Assembly (NCBI GenBank): GCA_963707025.1
Contig: CAVPOM010000011.1
Span: 63,164-127,163 of the forward strand
DNA: 64,000 nt
Origin: an uncultured Verrucomicrobiae bacterium
Lineage (GTDB): Bacteria; Verrucomicrobiota; Verrucomicrobiia; Limisphaerales; Palsa-1400
Reading direction: 5' to 3'
Both the position numbers and the translations under genes were made by a program. The notes under the pieces were generated by a model. The model was not told the DNA's origin, ran no database searches, and saw only the letters and a list, made by a program, of their open reading frames with translations. The number at the start of each line of letters is the position of its first letter. Position 1 is the first letter of the stretch. This document shows, piece after piece, positions 13,300 to 64,000 of this stretch.

Positions 13300-14320
13300 C
13301 AGAGAGGCAGGCGGCAGGAAAAGGCTTGAAATCAGACCGCCTGCGGCGGTAGAGTTGAGAACCCTAAGAAAACGGAGAGGGAGGACGGGCAGTGCTCCGC
13401 ATCGCTCGTTCTCTCTTTTCGAAAGGGTTTTGAAACACGGAATGAACAGTAGTCAACTACAATTAGTAATGACAGCAATCGGCAAAAGTCGCGCTTATTT
13501 CATGCGCTCCGTGGTCTAAAGGATGGGGTCCACCTCATTGGAGTGAATAAGTGACGGTCGCCGAGTTTCAAAAAATCACCTTGATTTAGCTTGATTGGGC
13601 TTGAAGGACCCTGATCGTGAAATCTCGTTTTTACGTGTAAGATGCACATGGAAAGGCACTTGAGTTGATTTGCCGCAAAAAGGCGCCAATCGCGCCAAGA
13701 TGCCATGGTTGGGGTGCGGGAATCGTATAGTTCACGGATTTGGTCAGGTATGGCATCGTTCTGGGTTGATGGAGTAATGGAGTCCTGCGCTGGCTGTGGC
13801 GCGTCGGTCAAAGTTAAAAAATGGTTTGACCGGGCATGACCGAGTATGACCGGGCACAATTGGGAAAGCGCCGTGAGGTGCGTAAACGGTTCATGGACAG
13901 GCATTTGGATTGATTTGCCGCCAGAAGCCACAAAAGGCGCACAGCAAGCCGTTGTTTGGGTGGTGGGAACATGGAAAAGGATACGATTAGTCAGCCGCCG
14001 CCAGTTGGAAGCAGGGTTGCAACCAAACCAACGAAGAAAGAACTTCGCTGGCTGCTGTGGAATTCGCAACCTGGGGAATCCCGTCCTGGTCCCGCCGCCG
14101 TCCGATGCCACTGTTGCCTTGCCCCTTCTCACTATGCAATTTTAGCATGTAAAGTCGTGCCGTCAACGGAAAAATGCGGATTTTGGCAAGGACTTGATCA
14201 TAAGCTGCTTGCGCCGTTTGATCACGGATGGTGAAAAGGCGGGAGGCGCAGCGCGGAAAGCCGCAACCAAAAAGAAGGTGGAGGCTGTCTCAAGTTCCGG
14301 GCTGGCGTGCGGCGCAGATG

Positions 14321-15253
14321 TCAGCGCGCTCCAGCATCCGGTTGAGCGACATCGAACTTCAACACGACGTTGGTGTCACCCGCCTTGACTGGCAGCCATG
14401 TGCCTGACCTGAGAATGGCGATCTTGTGGCTGCCCGGAGGGTGTTCAAAGCTGGCGTTGACGAAGAGCGAGCCGTCGCAGACATCGAAGGCGAAATGTCC
14501 CGTCGCATCCGATTGGGTGCTGGCGCTGAGTTCCCCGCAAATCCCCACCCAGGCCGCGGGAACCGGTTTGCCGTCAGAACCGAACACGTGGCCGGCGATT
14601 TTGCGGTTCAGCAATTTGAGGACAACGTCCGGGAAAACGAATTGGTTGGTTTGAGAATCCCTGGCTTGCAGCGAGACCGTGACCGGGGCGAATCCTGCGG
14701 CGCCGCAGCCGCATTGGTAATCGAATCCCTGTGGCAGAGCTGAAATGGAGAAGGCTCCTTGCCCATCCACCTTGACCGGTTGCGGGCCCAAATTGGAGTA
14801 GGAATGAGCCACCACGAAACAGAGATTCACTGAGGCCGTGCTGACCGGCGATCCCTTCGTATCCTTGAGCAATCCTGACAAGGTGATTCCGGGTTGCAGG
14901 TTTAAGTCCATTTTCGCCGGCGTGCCGGTGAATTCTCCGATGGCGGCAAGGTTCCGTTTGAGATCGCGAGCCAGGATGGCATTGGTCGGGTTGATGGGGC
15001 CGTCCCAAGGAACCGCATTGTCGTCTGGAGGGGTCTTCACGATCAAGTCATATCTCCCGTTTTTATGCGTCCTGGCTTCGGCGTAGGCGGGCGCTGCCGG
15101 GTATTGTCCTGGATGGAATGTCACCTCCACGCCTGGGGCCGGCGCGCCGGAAGGATCGCGCACCGTGCCGGAAATCGTCACGGACCGGTCTGAATCAGCC
15201 GGGACCAGTCCGTGGCAGGCCGAGCCGAAAACCAGAGCCGCCCCCAAAATCAA
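14321..15253 (-). CDS. Secreted protein with carboxypeptidase-regulatory-like (beta-sandwich) repeats
   Basis: Three 'I/LxGxVxDxxGxPV' repeats (ISGTVRDPSGAP, LSGLLKDTKGSP, IAGHVFGSDGKP). Hydrophobic N-terminus. Start codon uncertain. Confidence 0.7.
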   Translation of the reverse strand: MILGAALVFGSACHGLVPADSDRSVTISGTVRDPSGAPAPGVEVTFHPGQYPAAPAYAEARTHKNGRYDLIVKTPPDDNAVPWDGPINPTNAILARDLKRNLAAIGEFTGTPAKMDLNLQPGITLSGLLKDTKGSPVSTASVNLCFVVAHSYSNLGPQPVKVDGQGAFSISALPQGFDYQCGCGAAGFAPVTVSLQARDSQTNQFVFPDVVLKLLNRKIAGHVFGSDGKPVPAAWVGICGELSASTQSDATGHFAFDVCDGSLFVNASFEHPPGSHKIAILRSGTWLPVKAGDTNVVLKFDVAQPDAGAR

Positions 15254-15506
15254 ACCGCATTTCTGAAATCTTTTCGCAAGGCCTCCGAGGTTGAAAATTC
15301 AGTTCGCAGGATGTTCACTCATTATGACACCGAACGCTACCATTCATTTGACGGAAAAGAAGAATTTTCGCCCGCGCCCTTCCAAGCGCCTCCCAAAAAG
15401 TTGCGGCAGCGGCGGGAAGCACCTCTGCCCGACCAGTCCAAGGCAGGAGCATTGCATTGCCAAGGCAAGGGGTGTAAAGAAAACAGGTAATGGGTCAGTC
15501 ATGGAG

Positions 15507-15582
15507 GGTAGGGCGAGATTCCGTCGAGCCGAAATTCGATTTCTCGGGAAGAAGTCACGGCTCGACGGAGTCTCGCCCCACC
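15507..15582. repeat. GTAG-type REP palindrome pair
   Basis: GGTAGGGCGAGATTCCGTCGAGCCG ... CGGCTCGACGGAGTCTCGCCCCACC, an imperfect 25-bp inverted repeat. Confidence 0.8.
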
Positions 15583-15635
15583 GTCCCAGACGCCTTACGA
15601 AAACAGGAAACCGGCCGGAGCCGGAATTGACAGAT

Positions 15636-16523
15636 ATGACTATGCCGTTGACCGGGGTATTGGCGAAATGGACGCGCCGGGAAATGATCGGACGCACCAC
15701 ACAGTTGGCGGCAACGCTGGCCTTCGGTTCCGCCCTGGCCCCCTTGCTGGCCGCGCCGGGCGGACGCGGCTTCAAAATCGGCGCACCCGAATGGTCTTTG
15801 CGGAAGACCGACCCTTCCTGCTTCGAGGTGGCGCGCGACATTGGCCTGGACGGGGTGCAGGTCAACCTCGGCAGCGCGGGCGACCAGATGCACCTGCGCC
15901 AGCCCGCCGTGCAGCAGGCTTATTTGGCCGCCGCCCGCCAGAACGGATTGGAGATCGCCTCGCTGGCCCTGGCGGAATTGAACAATATCCCGCTCAAGAG
16001 CGATCCGCGCGCGGCCATTTGGCTGCTGGATTCCCTGGCGGTGGCGCAGGCGCTGGGCGTCAAGGTGATCCTGGTCGCGCAGTTTTTCCACGGCGAACTC
16101 AAGGGTGACAAAGAGGGGACGGATCGCACGGTGGGATTGCTCAAGGAACTGGCGCCTCGCGCCGAGAAAGCGGGCGCGATTCTTGGCCTGGAGAACTATC
16201 TCAGCGCGCCGGAGAATCTGGATATCATCCAGCGCGCCGGCTCGCCGGCGGTGCAGGTTTATTATGACGTGGGCAATTCCACCGACAAGGGCTACGACAT
16301 ATACCAGGAGATCCGCCTGCTCAAGGACCGCGTCTGCGAATTCCACGCCAAGGATGGAAACTTCATGCTCGGCCAGGGACGGATTGACTTTCACAAAGTC
16401 CGGCAGGCGATGGATGAGATCAATTACCGGGGCTGGATTCAGATTGAGGCCGCCGCGCCGCACGCGCTGGTGGAGGATTACCGCGCGGACTTGAAATTCC
16501 TCAAGGGCATATTCCCTGCTTGA
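15636..16523 (+). CDS. Tat-exported sugar phosphate isomerase/epimerase (xylose isomerase-like TIM barrel)
   Basis: 'TRREMI' Tat motif, 'GLDGVQV', 'LGLENY', 'VYYDVGNS', 'EFHAKD', 'GWIQIE'. Confidence 0.88.
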   Translation: MTMPLTGVLAKWTRREMIGRTTQLAATLAFGSALAPLLAAPGGRGFKIGAPEWSLRKTDPSCFEVARDIGLDGVQVNLGSAGDQMHLRQPAVQQAYLAAARQNGLEIASLALAELNNIPLKSDPRAAIWLLDSLAVAQALGVKVILVAQFFHGELKGDKEGTDRTVGLLKELAPRAEKAGAILGLENYLSAPENLDIIQRAGSPAVQVYYDVGNSTDKGYDIYQEIRLLKDRVCEFHAKDGNFMLGQGRIDFHKVRQAMDEINYRGWIQIEAAAPHALVEDYRADLKFLKGIFPA

Positions 16524-57684: not shown

Positions 57685-58552
57685 TTAGTTGGCCGGAATC
57701 ATGTCCGCTTCCGGCCAGCCGTCCGCGTTCCAGTGGAGCGGCATGAGGGCCAGGGTGGTGGCCCCGCCCCGTCCGCCGTCGTATTCAAAGTGGCAACTCA
57801 ACCAGTTTGTGCCCTTGTCCACTATAATCCCAGCGTGCCCCGGTCCAATCATCTGCCCCCTCGCGCCCAAAAACAGGCTGCCGCCTCCTGCCAGCATGTC
57901 CACTCCATTCTTGTCCAGATAAGGCCCCGTAACCTTGTGGCTCCTTCCCACCCTGATGTTGTAGGTGCTCTTCGCCCCTTGGAGGCACGACCCCCAATTC
58001 ACAAACAAATAGTAATCGCCTCCCCGCTGGTAAAGGTAGGACGCCTCAATGGAGCTGTTATGAGCCAGGGACGTGACTGGGGAATCCGGGGCGATGCGCT
58101 TGCCAGTCTGCGGATCCAGTTGGATCAATTTAATGCCGCTCCAGTACGAACCGAAAGACAGCCAAAGACTCCCATCAGCGTCATGGAATATGGCCGGGTC
58201 AATCGTGTTGAAATCATTGCTCGCGCGGGACTGAACAACCATGCCCTGGTCTGTCCACCGAGAGCCTGGATCGTTCGAGTCCAGGGTGGGGTTTGTCGCC
58301 AGGCCGATGGCGGAGGTGTTCTTGCCGAGACTGGAAGCTGAGTAATAAAGCAAATACCGGTCCCCCAGGTGAATAATGTCCGGCGCCCAATAAGTGCCGC
58401 GATTCTCCGGCACGGCTTGGGCAATCCAATCCGGCGCATTGGTGAATACGCGCGGTCCCCGCTCCCATTTCACCAGGTCTTTTGAATGATACGACATCAC
58501 ACCGCGACCTGTATGAAAAACCCAGAACTCGTCCTTGCATTTGATGATGGTG
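57685..58552 (-). pseudogene. GH43 endo-1,5-alpha-L-arabinanase, 5'-truncated by IS3 copy 2
   Basis: The frame reads TIIKCKDEFWVFHTGRG directly from the IS end. 'WAPDI', 'NTIDPA', 'SFGSYWSGI', 'IEASY' and 'GPGH' are present, but the signal peptide and the HDP motif are missing. Confidence 0.85.
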
Positions 58553-58789
58553 TGAGGTGGACCCCATCCTTTAGACCACGGAGCGCATGAAATAAGCGCG
58601 ACTTTTGCCGATTGCTGTCATTACTAATTGTAGTTGACTACTGTTCATTCCGTGTTTCAAAACCCTTTCGAAAGAGAGAACGAGCGATGCGGAGCACTGC
58701 CCGTCCTCCCTCTCCGTTTTCTTAGGGTTCTCAACTCTACCGCCGCAGGCGGTCTGATTTCAAGCCTTTTCCTGCCGCCTGCCTCTCTG

Positions 58790-59677
58790 TCAAGTGCTGC
58801 GATCGCTCCTGCCTCTGGCAGGTTGCATCGCTTCCCATTTGGCCGGTTGGGCTCCATGCGTGCCGGGATCAAAATACGCGTCCGCCGGCGTCGCATAGCC
58901 CAACGCCTGGTGCGGTCGTTCCCGGTTGTAGCCGTCAAACCACCGGCCCAGTCCGCGCCCTGCCGCCAACCCGTCGCCATAGTCTTGCAAATAAATGTCC
59001 TCATACTTGGCGCTCCGCCACAGCCGCTCGATAAACCGGTTGTCCATCCAGCGACCCCGTCCGTCCATGCTCACGTCCACCCCCGCCGATTCCACCGCAT
59101 CGATAAACATCGGGGAGGTGAACTGCGATCCCTGGTCGGTATTGGAAATCAACGGCGCCTGACGCCCCGCCCGCAACGCCGCCTCCCAAGCGTCCACACA
59201 AAAGTCCGCCTCCAACGTGTTGCTCAAGCGCCATCCCAGCACGTAACGACTCCACCAGATCCATCACCGCCACCAAATACATAAACCCAGTTGCCATAGG
59301 CACATACGTAATGTCCGAACACCAAACCTGATCCGGTCCCGTCACTGCCAAATTGCGTAACAGATACGGATAAATCTGGTGCCCCATCTCCCGCAGACTC
59401 GTCTTGGGCTTGGCGTAAATCGCCTCGATCCCCATCAACCGCAGCAGCCGCACCACCCGTTTGCGATTGATGGTCAAACCCTCCCGGCGCAACAGCACGG
59501 TCAGTTTGCGGCTGCCATAAACCGGGTGGTCCAAATGCATCTGGTCCAACCGCCGCATCAGCGCCAGGTTCTCCTCTGTCTCCGGACAGCACTGGTAATA
59601 ATAACTGCCACGGCACACCGCCAGCAGCTCGCACTGGCGCCGCACGCTGAGCTGCGGATCGGGAGCGATTAAACATG
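58790..59677 (-). pseudogene. IS3 OrfB of copy 2 (detached from OrfA; +1 indel near 59258)
   Basis: Same protein as copy 1, split into ORFs 59001-59645 and 58790-59242. Confidence 0.9.
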
Positions 59678-59686
59678 TTAAAGCCC

Positions 59687-61137
59687 CACACCCGTCTCAT
59701 AAGGGGAAAAGTCTGGTGCTGACCTGTTCATTTGCAAGGGTTTAATTGGTCTTCGGGGTAAAATGAGATTTTGATTTTTCCGAGTTTGGCTTTTGGGTTT
59801 GGTATGCGCCTGTTTGGGCGCGTGTGCTGTCCCATAGCTTTATTGGAAGCCGGGGAAATACGCCTGCTCGGGCCGCGCCAAGTGGCGAAAGCTGCCGCCT
59901 GCTGTCCCATAGCACGCCAGCAAATTGAGCAGATCATATTTCTCCCAGAGCGCCGCCCGCAAAATCGTGAACAGCCGGGTGAAGCTGTGCGCCCAGTTGG
60001 AGAGGTGACTGAGGTAGCGCAACAGCACGTAGGTCAACAGCGCCGTCCACACCTGCCAGCGCACGGCGTTGGCGTTGTGGCCCAGAAAATCCGCCAACTG
60101 CAAGGTCTGCTTGATTTGTTTGAAGAAGACTTCGATCTGCCAGCGGCAGCGGTAAAGGTCGGCCACGCTGCGCGGACTCCACTCCAGGTTGTTGGTCAGG
60201 AAGGTCATTTCCCGTTCCTCTCCATCAATCTCGACCAGCGCCACCACCCGGCGCATCAACTCCGGCGCGGGTTTGTTCTCGTTGCTCAGGACGATCACTT
60301 CGTCGCGCAAAATCTTCGGGTCTCTGGAGGCGGGCATTTTCCGCACCACCTCATAGCCCATGTTCTCCTTGGCCCGCGTCACCCAAAAGACCCCGCGCCC
60401 GTCCAAATCCCGCAAGTGGCCGAAGTCCACATAACCCTTGTCGAACAAGGCGATTTCGCCGCTCTTCAAGTCGGCGCACAGTTCCCGCGCCCGTCGGTTG
60501 TCGTGCTCGGCGGCAGTGTCCACAATGACAAAACCGGGCAAAAGATTCTGCAGATTCAACCGCATATGGGTTTTGGCGGCGGCCTTGCGCCGGCGGTGCT
60601 TGGCCCAGTCCAGGCAGTTGGCCACCAGTTCCATGGTCGTGCTATCAATCACATGGATGGGCATCTTGAAACGGAAGGCGGGGCCACGGCGCTGGCCCGC
60701 GGCAAAGCCGGGCGTCTGTGCTTTCAAATGCTCCAGGACCCGCCAGAAGAGTTGTTCGGCCATCTGGGCCGGACGCTCCCGGTTGGCGTGGGAGAGGCCG
60801 TTGCGGCTGGGGGCGCTGGCGCCGCGCAAAGTGGACAGCGGCCCGGAATGCAATTGCAGCGAGTCGCACAGATCGTTGAGTCCGATGCAATGGGTGAGTT
60901 GCGCGTCCAGCAAACTGACCGTGTGACTCCACGGACTGAAGGTGCGCGACTTATCCAGAGCCCCGGTCTCCCGCGCTATTTTGGAGACTTCATGCGCAGG
61001 AATGAGATTGCAAATCTGGCGCAAAACGTTAAACCGGGACCGTGTCGGTTTGATTTTTTTGTTTTTCATGCCTGCCTTGTGGCAGGTTCAAATGGTCAAG
61101 CCAACACTTTTTTCCAATTTCCTGTGGGATGGCTGTG
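59687..61137 (-). mobile_element. IS4-family insertion sequence, copy 1 (1451 bp)
   Basis: Imperfect IRs CACAGCCATCCCACAG / CACACCCGTCTCATAA. 9-bp target duplication TTAAAGCCC at 59678-86 and 61138-46. Confidence 0.93.
59840..61069 (-). CDS. IS4-family transposase (DUF4372 + DDE_Tnp_1)
   Basis: 'IDSTT', 'FDKGY', 'FLTNN', YREK-type 'YRCRWQIEVFFKQIKQ', 'NAVRWQVW'. Confidence 0.95.
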   Translation of the reverse strand: MKNKKIKPTRSRFNVLRQICNLIPAHEVSKIARETGALDKSRTFSPWSHTVSLLDAQLTHCIGLNDLCDSLQLHSGPLSTLRGASAPSRNGLSHANRERPAQMAEQLFWRVLEHLKAQTPGFAAGQRRGPAFRFKMPIHVIDSTTMELVANCLDWAKHRRRKAAAKTHMRLNLQNLLPGFVIVDTAAEHDNRRARELCADLKSGEIALFDKGYVDFGHLRDLDGRGVFWVTRAKENMGYEVVRKMPASRDPKILRDEVIVLSNENKPAPELMRRVVALVEIDGEEREMTFLTNNLEWSPRSVADLYRCRWQIEVFFKQIKQTLQLADFLGHNANAVRWQVWTALLTYVLLRYLSHLSNWAHSFTRLFTILRAALWEKYDLLNLLACYGTAGGSFRHLARPEQAYFPGFQ

Positions 61138-61428
61138 TTAAAGCCCCAGTTGCCTGGACTTTTTTTTAAGCCAGTCCAAGTCCACCGTCAGTTGGCCAAT
61201 CTTCTCATGCAGTTGGGCAATCAACTGTTCCTGATCCTCCGTGCGGGGTTGCCCGGGCTCAAACAATTCGGGCATGTGATCCCGAATCGTCGCCCGCCAC
61301 TGCGTGACCTGCGCCGGATGCACCGCATACTCTCGCGCCAATTGCGCGACCGTCTTCAGCCCCACCAGGGCTTCGAATCCCACTTTGGCCTTGAAGGCCG
61401 CACTGTGTCTTTTCCGTTTTGCTTTCAT
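61138..61428 (-). CDS. IS3 OrfA of copy 2 (intact)
   Basis: Identical to 12122-12412. Confidence 0.93.
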   Translation of the reverse strand: MKAKRKRHSAAFKAKVGFEALVGLKTVAQLAREYAVHPAQVTQWRATIRDHMPELFEPGQPRTEDQEQLIAQLHEKIGQLTVDLDWLKKKSRQLGL

Positions 61429-61506
61429 AAGTCTGCTCTTTCTTATCTACAGCAAACCGGCAAAAATCGAAACTTACCTGTGGTCTAAAAATAGGGGTCC
61501 AGCTCA

Positions 61507-61549
61507 ACATCACGGTTAATCCCGACAAGTCGGGACTCTGCCATTGAGC
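61507..61549 (-). other. tRNA-Asn-like fragment with the anticodon arm's 5' half replaced by a palindrome; truncated by IS3
   Basis: Minus strand GCTCAATGGCAGAG (D-arm-like) - TCCCGACTTGTCGGGA - TTAACCGTGATGT (3' part of a GTT anticodon loop and stem). Confidence 0.6.
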
Positions 61550-61788
61550 AACGTCTCCCGAATCCACCGGGCTGATTTCATGGATTTGATTTGCCGCTCG
61601 CGTTGCATGGCGGCAGAACGAGTTGGATGCTGCTCGGACCAAACCAGCTTCCAAGGGCCGTTTTTCCGTGTGAATTTACCGGCGATTCGATCGGTGCGAT
61701 TGTGATTTTCCAACCGCACCGCAAGATCGCTCGTATGGCCGGTGTAAAAGCGGCCCTCTGCATTCTCAAGAATGTATACCCAAAACAT
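61516..61788 (-). CDS. Small GIY-YIG nuclease (UPF0213/SLX1-like)
   Basis: 'WVYIL...FYTGHT..L..RL..HN', 'FT...GPWKLV', 'AMQRERQIKSMKS'. Confidence 0.92.
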   Translation of the reverse strand: MFWVYILENAEGRFYTGHTSDLAVRLENHNRTDRIAGKFTRKNGPWKLVWSEQHPTRSAAMQRERQIKSMKSARWIRETLLNGRVPTCRD

Positions 61789-61813
61789 GGAGCCAATGAA
61801 AAAGTTGGCTCCC
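61789..61813 (-). other. tRNA 3'-end-like GGGAGCCA paired in a hairpin directly before the GIY-YIG ATG; possible att site
   Basis: Minus strand GGGAGCCA-ACTTTTTCA-TTGGCTCC-ATG. AT-richer DNA extends rightwards from here. Confidence 0.5.
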
Positions 61814-62012
61814 TTGGTCTCACGATAGAAAGAACTTTCAAAATCACAGTGTCGCTAGGCGCTTCTAGGCGACAAAAGCCCTACGAAGCTACGATCTAAC
61901 GATGCGGGTCTGGGAGGCCCCAGAACCAAAAAAGATGGCCGTGTCTTAATTTCGATTTCCGGCAGATTTTGCCGGGTTTTTGGCGTAAGTTTGGCTCATG
62001 CGGGTATAAACT

Positions 62013-62792
62013 TCATTTTCCATCATACCTGCCAGCCCATTGTCCAGTCATATCTATTAAATCCAATGGGAAAACGCTCCAATGGTTTGTCCCATTGATT
62101 GTGGTTTTTTTGCTGGTGATGCAACCCAGCCGCTCATTTTGTTGGGGAATTTCAAACCGCCATTTCGTCTGTCCGTTTACAACCGCATCCACTTCCCCAC
62201 GAAGCACTGTAAATGTATTATTTGTTTCTAAACCTCTAATTTGCAAAGCTAAAGAGGCAATTTTATTGAAGTTTTTTGCAGGCATTCCCCACCCTGGATA
62301 TTCTGGGAGAGTTAACGTTGAAACGGGCTTTCTAAATTTCATGTCGCATTCTCGATCCACACCCCCTCCGAGAATGTTCGCCACGGTTACATCGGCCCAG
62401 TCCGCATTTAAAAAGAACATTTTATTGGAAACTTCATTCCCCATAAATAAAGTCAGCCACCCGCTCCAATTCGTGGTCTCGGAAGACAGGTGTATATGTC
62501 CATCTCCTTTGATGATGAATCTTGCCTCAGCCGAAAGGTCATTGATTGGCTGGTTCATTGGCTCACTTTCCCAGTCAATGATTGCGACACTTACAGCAAC
62601 AACCAATTCGATTACGACGCCAGCCGTGACCACCCACGCTCCAATTTCACGAATTTGTTTTGACCGTCTGAAATCCGAAATATTTTTATACCAGTGTTTT
62701 TCACATAGTATTTCCATTAGCAGCCCGACAAACACCACCAGCCCTCCTAGCCCCGCCCAGACCACAAACCAAAAAAGTGACGGTGTTGTCAT
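62013..62792 (-). CDS. Hypothetical membrane protein (2 N-terminal TM helices), low GC
   Basis: Hydrophobic segments 'LFWFVVWAGLGGLVVFVGLLM' and 'IGAWVVTAGVVIELVVAVSVAII'. Confidence 0.65.
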   Translation of the reverse strand: MTTPSLFWFVVWAGLGGLVVFVGLLMEILCEKHWYKNISDFRRSKQIREIGAWVVTAGVVIELVVAVSVAIIDWESEPMNQPINDLSAEARFIIKGDGHIHLSSETTNWSGWLTLFMGNEVSNKMFFLNADWADVTVANILGGGVDRECDMKFRKPVSTLTLPEYPGWGMPAKNFNKIASLALQIRGLETNNTFTVLRGEVDAVVNGQTKWRFEIPQQNERLGCITSKKTTINGTNHWSVFPLDLIDMTGQWAGRYDGK

Positions 62793-62798
62793 ACTGCT

Positions 62799-63449
62799 TT
62801 ACTTGATCGCTGTCCGTTGAATATATTCGCCCGTGTTAATCCGTCGCTCAATTTCTTTGCCAAGGGCATCCTGAAGGTGTTCCCATCCATGGTCAAACTC
62901 TCTCTTGAAATGGCAATGAGAACACGAAAGAGAGATTGGAGGGCCGAACTGGCTTGGTCTGATGTTCGTATAACGTTCAAAATCCATTTGCCTATCAAGG
63001 CGATTCAGGCAGTTAGGCTCAGGACAGATCGGCGTTAATGAATTCAAATTTATCATCCCTCGCATGTCGTAACTCCAAAGCCACATAACACCGAAAATGT
63101 GGTCATTGACGTAGTTATGAGGGTCTGGCCTTTGTGGTGGTAGTGTCTCTGGTTGTTGTGCGTTGATTGTGATAGAGTGAACAAATGCCCATAATACAAT
63201 CGGCACGGCCAGCAGAATACCTCCAAACAAAATCCATTCCCAAATGGGCAGAGTGACGGGATGAAACAACCAATCAAAATATCCACGAACCCACAGAGCG
63301 TATAGAGCAACAATTAGAAACGCAGGCAAAATTACTTTCCAGAACCGTTTGCAAAAGACCATGACCTTTTTGTATTGTATGGCCAATGTCACAAAGGTTG
63401 CCACACCCATAAATATCTCTGCGATATGTGCCCAATCTTCAAGTTTCAT
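62799..63449 (-). CDS. Hypothetical membrane protein (about 3 TM) with C-terminal Cys cluster, low GC
   Basis: AGGA RBS before the ATG at 63449, three hydrophobic stretches, 'CPEPNC...CSHC' putative zinc ribbon. Confidence 0.65.
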   Translation of the reverse strand: MKLEDWAHIAEIFMGVATFVTLAIQYKKVMVFCKRFWKVILPAFLIVALYALWVRGYFDWLFHPVTLPIWEWILFGGILLAVPIVLWAFVHSITINAQQPETLPPQRPDPHNYVNDHIFGVMWLWSYDMRGMINLNSLTPICPEPNCLNRLDRQMDFERYTNIRPSQFGPPISLSCSHCHFKREFDHGWEHLQDALGKEIERRINTGEYIQRTAIK

Positions 63450-63461
63450 TAGTCCTATCTT

Positions 63462-64000
63462 CACAGCCATCCCACAGGAAATTGGAAAAGAGTGTTGGCT
63501 TGACCATTTGAACCTGCCACAAGGCAGGCATGAAAAACAAAAAAATCAAACCAACACGGTCCCGGTTTAACGTTTTGCGCCAGATTTGCAATCTCATTCC
63601 TGCGCATGAAGTCTCCAAAATAGCGCGGGAGACCGGGGCTCTGGATAAGTCGCGCACCTTCAGTCCGTGGAGTCACACGGTCAGTTTGCTGGACGCGCAA
63701 CTCACCCATTGCATCGGACTCAACGATCTGTGCGACTCGCTGCAATTGCATTCCGGGCCGCTGTCCACTTTGCGCGGCGCCAGCGCCCCCAGCCGCAACG
63801 GCCTCTCCCACGCCAACCGGGAGCGTCCGGCCCAGATGGCCGAACAACTCTTCTGGCGGGTCCTGGAGCATTTGAAAGCACAGACGCCCGGCTTTGCCGC
63901 GGGCCAGCGCCGTGGCCCCGCCTTCCGTTTCAAGATGCCCATCCATGTGATTGATAGCACGACCATGGAACTGGTGGCCAACTGCCTGGACTGGGCTGCC
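63462..64000 (+). mobile_element. IS4-family copy 2 (left end plus partial transposase from 63530), runs off the window
   Basis: Begins CACAGCCATCCCACAGG and is nearly identical to the reverse complement of the 60.6-61.1 kb part of copy 1. Confidence 0.93.

Follow-up and report, generated by a model that had tools for sequence, protein, structure and literature searches.

A small GIY-YIG nuclease gene joined to a dead, hairpin-bearing copy of tRNA-Asn: a candidate selfish cassette at bacterial tRNA genes

The locus analysed here raises the question of why a small, intact nuclease gene should lie between pieces of tRNA-Asn and take its own stop codon from one of them. The locus is located near the end of the window, which is the whole stretch of 64,000 nucleotides of DNA that was analysed. 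The original prediction had interpreted it as a tRNA-targeting mobile element, an interpretation that is supported by the analysis below, as its predictions held. Our best explanation, to which we assign a probability of about one half, is a selfish cassette at tRNA genes, whose predicted nuclease would bind its own hairpin in single-stranded DNA, nick beside it and spread by recombination through tRNA halves.

The nuclease gene and its dead tRNA-Asn copy

The nuclease gene is encoded on the minus strand (61516-61788) and specifies a 90-residue, single-domain GIY-YIG protein. A Pfam profile search matched it to PF01541 with an E-value of 1.6e-17, which places it in the GIY-YIG superfamily; NCBIfam and PADLOC gave no match, and the matches in the ESM Atlas are unnamed GIY-YIG clusters only. 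Residues Y15, G17, R25, H29, R63, E64 and K68 are invariant across 97 aligned nuclease sequences, and the gene is under purifying selection, with a median dN/dS of 0.15 (351 pairs, 72 sequences). The predicted structure consists of one 90-residue domain (pLDDT 80). Its nearest folds are UPF0213, HIGLE and Slx1, which are also the closest solved sequences, with I-TevI ranked lower; Slx1 differs in being a multi-domain repair enzyme, and no function of UPF0213 was found in the literature searched. Among public sequencing runs, the best shared 0.23 of words, and the four runs compared contained contigs of relatives.

The tRNA pieces reported around this gene were all confirmed at their positions in the window sequence, and they match the host tRNA-Asn(GTT), which is encoded by two identical genes (C5:323128-323202 and C9:16456-16530 of the host genome, G000). 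The first of these lacks the usual upstream region and has AT-rich flanks. The last codons of the ORF run through a remnant of the D-arm (61536-61549, minus strand; about tRNA positions 10-24), in which 13 of 14 nucleotides are identical to the host tRNA, and into a 16-bp palindrome with 7-bp arms (61520-61535) that takes the place of positions 25-34, an exact swap common to 63 loci. The stop codon corresponds to tRNA positions 36-38 in the anticodon loop. Of the duplicated 3' half, only the start is present (61507-61519, minus strand; positions 35-47), cut by an IS3-like element, and its 13 nucleotides are identical to the host tRNA (15 if two bases shared with the end of the insertion sequence are counted). 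The ORF end therefore has the composition originally proposed, a D-arm and the 3' side of the anticodon arm with the palindrome between them; the 5' anticodon strand, which had been expected to read CACGG, is CGCGG in the host, with one G-U pair.

No tRNA or other RNA was identified in the window by ARAGORN and Rfam. The cloverleaf cannot be restored by splicing, as 10 nucleotides including anticodon position 34 are gone and the 5' strand of the acceptor stem is overwritten, and an intact tRNA or a tRNA with an intron was thus ruled out. Judged from its sequence, the tRNA-like part derives from the tRNA-Asn gene of the host itself, as a dead duplicate. Consequently, the proposed combination of a nuclease and a tRNA mimic is retained with respect to the tRNA duplication, but not as an independent mimic.

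On the upstream side, a 17-nt spacer (61789-61805, minus strand) separates the ATG from GGAGCCA (61806-61812, minus strand), the final 7 nt of a preceding tRNA copy. The shared tRNA 3' end is limited to these 7 nt; the longer match that had been suggested fails, since the host tRNA has T, not G, before them. The reported complement of the tRNA end, the 8-nt sequence TTGGCTCC, is present in the spacer (61789-61796), but is not a family feature, with at least 6 nt complementary to the tRNA end in only 2 of 62 distinct spacers of relatives; a conserved hairpin over the start codon was rejected on the same count. The ATG is located 5-7 nt past the tRNA CCA in 19 of the 62 spacers, and in these the acceptor-stem GGAG could act as a ribosome-binding site that would be removed by tRNA maturation.

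A second copy of the cassette in the same genome (C9:13197-13466) has 2 differences in 304 bp and a complete 42-nt 3' half. The order on C9 is intact tRNA-Asn, IS1-family insertion, spacer, nuclease gene, D-arm remnant, palindrome, 42-nt 3' half and serine-recombinase island. The IS1-family element (C9:about 13490-16450), which carries passenger genes and has an 8-bp duplication, parts the intact tRNA-Asn from this first nuclease gene. The 13-mer just past the C9 dead copy has a perfect inverted repeat in the window (61823-61835). These 13-bp repeats, which are probably the attP arms of the island, have the 7-nt tRNA end as shared core, and a length of at least 13 was reached by 1 of 20000 random junction pairs.

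The remainder of the window (61813-64000), with two orphan ORFs and a split IS4 copy, appears to be the end of the island, which would continue on C9. The ORFs (62013-62792, 259 aa, and 62799-63470, 223 aa) have no Pfam or PADLOC match. Contig C11, which carries the window, ends with bases 1-533 of IS4, and on C9 the element continues from base 527, beyond a 3.67-kb repeat; the two contigs probably join. We infer that the ancestral locus consisted of a tRNA followed by two units; the island would then have entered at the end of the first dead copy, and the IS3-like element would have truncated the second. The window copy would thus be the damaged second unit of a tandem pair. The nuclease had been described as embedded between tRNA pieces, and a tRNA end does lie upstream; this description is refined here in that GGAGCCA would have ended the dead copy of the preceding unit and would now form the crossover core at the island junction. 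The serine-recombinase island evidently used the dead tRNA copy as its landing site, and the cassette unit itself (309-379 bp) contains no integrase, the serine recombinase belonging to the separate island. A gene for a large serine recombinase on C9 (L001:7601-9226) takes its last codons from the antisense strand of the dead tRNA copy and of the palindrome within it.

The IS3-like element (58553-61506, minus strand), which contains a nested IS4, truncates the dead tRNA copy and is not part of the cassette. No target duplication accompanies it, and on its far side it borders directly on the middle of a GH43 gene (57685-58552), which indicates an IS-linked deletion or rearrangement.

A family of cassettes at tRNA genes

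Related loci were collected from genomes and metagenomes (116 loci, 105 with a relative at at least 60% identity; many metagenome loci are near-copies, so locus counts are not independent). The unit is arranged as an intact tRNA-Asn, the 90-residue GIY-YIG gene and a dead, host-matched duplicate with the palindrome at positions 25-34. An intact tRNA-Asn is adjacent in 83 of the 105 loci, and an intact gene or a 3' fragment is present in 104 by a loose motif test. The palindrome is found in 99 of the 105 loci, compared with 13 of 1391 control bins, which, together with the second genome copy and its whole 42-nt 3' half, argues that the arrangement is not due to chance. Homologs numbered 444; among the 120 listed, 99 have last codons and a stop built from the dead copy and end in G.VP..RD, in line with the 'NGRVP..RD' ending that had been expected. 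Full-length tandem units, 2-4 per array, occur in 4 of 118 loci. Adjacency to tRNA-Asn, palindrome conservation, tandem arrays and empty sites (see below) had all been anticipated in the original prediction. At L040, L085 and L162 the layout is reversed, with the hairpin in the promoter-side copy and the intact copy behind the gene.

Comparison of intact and dead copies over positions 35-76 in 51 distinct pairs gave 29 identical pairs, 9 with one difference and 13 with at least 4, the latter being truncated or further plugged. The dead copy best matches its own host tRNA in 44 of the 51 pairs (19 alleles, median 8 nt apart). Identity to the host tRNA in these pairs is 0.73-1.0 over the 14 nt before the palindrome and at most 0.53 beyond. 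In 4 of the 51 pairs, one with a compensatory pair, the dead 3' half is closer to another functional allele; these 4 informative pairs fit either direction for the origin of the 3' halves.

The closest relatives of the window nuclease are found in MAGs labelled Verrucomicrobiota, and one nuclease clade spans MAGs labelled Verrucomicrobiota, Planctomycetota and Acidobacteriota. Three congeners (G017, G019 and G021) have the empty allele, that is, the same tRNA without the cassette; G018 gave no match and G020 matched in the neighbouring gene only. A close relative is present in 1 of 30 other genomes of the family, and 7 of 300 genomes of the class score in the same range, tRNA loci being under-assembled in incomplete MAGs. 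The best matches on plasmids and viral contigs have 34-55% identity, with none of the 7 viral loci beside a tRNA and the 8 plasmid records below 60%. Phage or plasmid carriage of close relatives was therefore rejected, and this lack of plasmid or viral relatives is a point against a selfish cassette.

Weaker matches represent the same kind of cassette at the tRNAs for fMet, elongator-Met/Ile2, Pro, Ser, Leu, Gly, Glu, Gln and Arg. On a nuclease tree (FastTree, 173 rows, 81 columns, 90 labelled), tRNA type requires 11 label changes, compared with 34-39 in 200 shuffles; as kin share labels, this shows clustering only. The Asn and fMet clades remain apart even within the same locus. The hairpin variant also differs by nuclease clade: TCCCGA in 59 of 70 for Asn, TCCCGC or TCCGGC in 18 of 20 for fMet and CCCCGA in 7 of 7 for elongator-Met/Ile2, after two tree rows labelled Met/Ile2 were relabelled as initiator-type for this tally. 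Clade-matched variants lie side by side in 6 of the 8 loci holding both cassettes. This pairing could be plain co-inheritance, a second point against our preferred reading. Within the Asn clade, hairpins have replaced positions 25-34, 29-34 or 39-46, in each case directly next to positions 35-38, and every primary hairpin destroys the anticodon stem-loop.

These last observations favour the main rival, intron-less homing, as does the tracking of tRNA type by nuclease clade. The nuclease would cut the intact anticodon arm of its own tRNA type, and repair from the donor would insert the cassette with a new 3' half and displace the native half; the palindrome would then confer immunity on the displaced copy. 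The four dead 3' halves closer to another functional allele are as expected for halves of different origin. In fungal mitochondrial mORFs, an endonuclease gene is likewise flanked by a working gene and by a second copy of that gene's 3' part, although the cassette differs in its bacterial chromosomal location, tRNA target, lack of a DNA-binding extension, conserved hairpin plug and tandem arrays (available text of PMC3630166). Similarly, the free-standing phage GIY-YIG enzyme SegB is encoded at tRNA genes, cuts them and is linked to amplification of tRNA segments, but, in the accessible parts of these sources, it has a DNA-binding motif, reads the T-arm, and has no isotype preference and no dead hairpin-plugged copy (PMC2330249, PMC13096335). 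The window locus shares with homing elements a 3' duplicate of the target beyond the ORF and empty alleles in relatives. However, the filled allele retains an intact tRNA gene, and an intact target always remains beside the gene. The modelled single domain of 90 residues leaves no separate DNA-binding region for a long site, and its predicted fold ranks Slx1 and UPF0213 above I-TevI. Immunity needs no single conserved hairpin across distant clades, and it leaves the hairpin in rRNA, attC-like and REP-like stem-loops unexplained. Homing is therefore rather unlikely in our estimate, and it is not mutually exclusive with a hairpin-nicking cassette.

The clade-specific tRNA types would also suit an anticodon nuclease with an RNA decoy, in which tRNA-Asn is the substrate of the protein and the dead copy, transcribed together with the gene, acts as an inhibitor that cannot be cut, as a toxin-antitoxin or anti-phage system. 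The junctions between positions 34 and 35 and between 38 and 39, which we take to be the cut sites of known anticodon nucleases, and the presence of HIGLE among the predicted fold neighbours point in the same direction. Nevertheless, dead copies are often without a T-arm or contain further hairpins, in the window the gene is intact although its dead copy has lost nearly all of the 3' half, PADLOC gave no match, and the related enzyme SsnA (discussed below) is inactive on RNA according to the available part of PMC11893778. This is the least probable of the explanations that we weighed.

The hairpin outside the cassette

The palindrome is not confined to the cassette and behaves as a separately spreading hairpin. 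Among 32 comparable cores in the host genome, hairpins with a TCCCG core show the strongest enrichment, and the genome has 120 strict-pattern matches in 56 flank classes. At sites for which there is an empty allele, the two ends of the replaced segment are complementary in 17 of 17 tRNA site classes (about 4.8 expected for 18), with at least two Watson-Crick end pairs in 14 of the 17 (about 1.3 expected) and a C to G run in 11; the classes are not fully independent, and one of 18 rows (Arg) was dropped as an artefact, its dead copy having been called as a tRNA. Among repeat families of the genome, 13 of 22 have at least two end pairs (1.6 expected; 12 of 132 slid windows) and 5 of 22 have none. 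Complementary ends are also seen at a 23S rRNA hairpin, at attC-like sites and at REP-like tips, and no target duplication was seen at hairpin swaps.

In 23S rRNA, a variable hairpin has given way to this 16-bp palindrome (host genome C18:256444-256459, L253; compare L238, L239 and L248); relatives carry other stem-loops there, and in G006 and G007 a related palindrome is found in the rRNA operon, about 1.1 kb upstream. It is also present in sites of the host genome that, from their end motifs, we take to be attC-like (C5:203160, 203809, 223337 and 292457; C6:262991; C7:103672), whose sister sites have a 12-nt stem-loop instead. The genome further contains three arrays of divergent tRNA genes (C2:106545-112159, C4:150761-153834 and C8:72468-81806), one of which carries the palindrome within a tRNA-like spacer (C4:152772).

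The number of hairpins is not tied to the presence of a cassette, which is a third point against a selfish cassette. In the class sample, six of the seven other cassette genomes have 0-4 matches and one (G261) has 25, and genomes without a detected cassette reach 13-41, as in G018 (25; 64% complete) and G020 (41; 78% complete). A hairpin burst as a rule for cassette carriers was thus not supported. The uncoupled counts would be expected if the nuclease gene were a passive passenger, with the duplicate being the att scar of integrative elements and the hairpin a REP-like repeat spread by Y1 transposases. The ends of tRNA-Asn are island hot spots here, many hairpins of the host genome lie in REP-like repeats, and its 10 Y1 transposase matches, sited away from the nuclease, could have amplified REP-like repeats that already bore the hairpin. 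On the other hand, the D-arm is duplicated too, which is not expected of an att scar, and a passenger would have neither an ORF end derived from the dead copy, as seen in 99 of the 120 homologs listed, nor the strict pairing of clade, tRNA and hairpin. Purifying selection and the lack of an integrase in the unit also argue against this scenario, which we regard as improbable.

REP/RAYT systems (REPtrons) resemble the cassette in that a nuclease gene is associated with genome-wide short palindromes. They are defined by a HUH/Y1 transposase flanked by GTAG-type REPs, whereas the cassette enzyme is a PF01541 protein and its hairpin takes the place of host sequence and lacks a fixed GTAG or CGTC tag; a mention of GIY-YIG was not found in the available text on these systems (PMC3733652). 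At L193, L200, L210 and L228, a different small GIY-YIG clade is located between the arms of a split palindrome inside integron-integrase genes (L183 and L192 in another gene), and the L228 flank matches TIGR02249. This clade is possibly the autonomous form of another palindrome family.

Comparison with Ssn nucleases and a proposed mechanism

The best precedent for a hairpin-reading enzyme is SsnA, a 94-residue, single-domain GIY-YIG protein that binds a hairpin with a TCCCG..CGGGA core as single-stranded DNA and cuts a few nucleotides upstream of it, without action on duplex DNA or RNA (PMC11893778, in part). In Neisseria it cuts incoming DNA that bears the hairpin, limiting integration, and a mobile-element origin has been proposed for Ssn (Chenal et al. 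2025, PMC11893778). The Ssn family (SsnA/NTS, cd10448) and the cassette share a stand-alone GIY-YIG enzyme of about 90 residues (about 95 in a single domain for Ssn; 90 in one domain here), the TCCCG..CGGGA hairpin and the pairing of hairpin variants with enzyme variants. They differ in that Ssn has inverted repeats on both sides, while the cassette has one hairpin inside a dead tRNA copy. The word 'tRNA' is absent from the main text of this source, and 12 of its 14 supplements had no relevant match (PMC11893778).

Ssn-type proteins are 37-42% identical to the window protein, which falls outside a clade with support of 99 that contains two proteins flanked by exact NTS and related REP-flanked proteins, used as proxies for SsnA (61 rows, 81 columns). 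The leader (SRM) that gives Ssn sites their direction (PMC11893778) was absent from all 138 cassette matches and from the window ORF, the search pattern being narrow (4 of 6 viral controls and 0 of 10 REP-flanked Verrucomicrobial loci recovered). By these two features, clade and SRM, with proxies standing for SsnA, the window protein is not an Ssn member; the missing leader is also a point against our preferred reading. By analogy, the window nuclease may nevertheless work like Ssn. The Verrucomicrobiae also contain Ssn-clade GIY-YIG genes whose inverted, GTCA-led flanking repeats are missed by the published SRM pattern (L196, L198, L202, L211, L213, L216, L217, L220 and L227).

The precedent in Neisseria also raises the possibility of a domesticated enzyme, kept by the host to cut incoming hairpin-bearing DNA and limit its integration (PMC11893778). 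The 120 hairpins of the host genome and the purifying selection would be in keeping with such a role. This is very improbable in our view, given that the gene is patchy and absent in congeners, that arrays contain decayed copies, that most cassette genomes hold 0-4 hairpins and that the tRNA duplicate is left unexplained. A hairpin-reading, nicking nuclease is ranked first because the hairpin that SsnA binds in single-stranded DNA has this core too (PMC11893778). The original prediction had left two roles for the palindrome side by side, a recognition or an immunity mark, and the evidence leans towards recognition.

A selfish cassette is favoured by the host-matched duplicate, conserved catalytic residues, purifying selection, patchy presence, tandem copies, clade pairing and hairpin swaps. 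In the mechanism that we propose, the nuclease would bind the palindrome in single-stranded DNA and nick next to the hairpin. The nicked ends would be homologous to an intact tRNA, so that the unit could be copied into or behind tRNA genes through 14-42 bp of tRNA homology, with one tRNA staying intact during copying. Nicking would thus drive recombination between two tRNA copies, and host recombination would do the copying. The same nicking at other stem-loops (rRNA, attC-like sites, REP-like tips and further arms of the dead copy) would seed the hairpin there. GIY-YIG domains are not known to perform strand transfer, a further point against this reading; host repair would therefore have to finish the swap.

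No description of a tRNA-nested nuclease cassette with a hairpin was found in the literature searched, which included few subscription papers. We tentatively entertain, as possible though doubtful, the broader proposal that a 90-residue nuclease and host repair together exchange the enzyme's own palindrome for any short stem-loop without target duplication. This would be a new class of mobile DNA, with the tRNA cassette as its autonomous form and dozens of clades, each with its own hairpin and tRNA address. The cassette also points to a route by which short palindromes may spread in bacterial genomes, through stem-loop replacement without duplication, a matter that concerns several repeat families. 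Should these enzymes be single-strand nucleases directed by hairpins, the Ssn toolbox would gain natural enzyme-hairpin pairs. For the very numerous small GIY-YIG genes that lie outside the Ssn clade and are uncharacterised, the proposed mechanism offers a role that can be tested on a named DNA substrate, and the cassette accounts for many tRNA fragments and false tRNA calls beside such genes.
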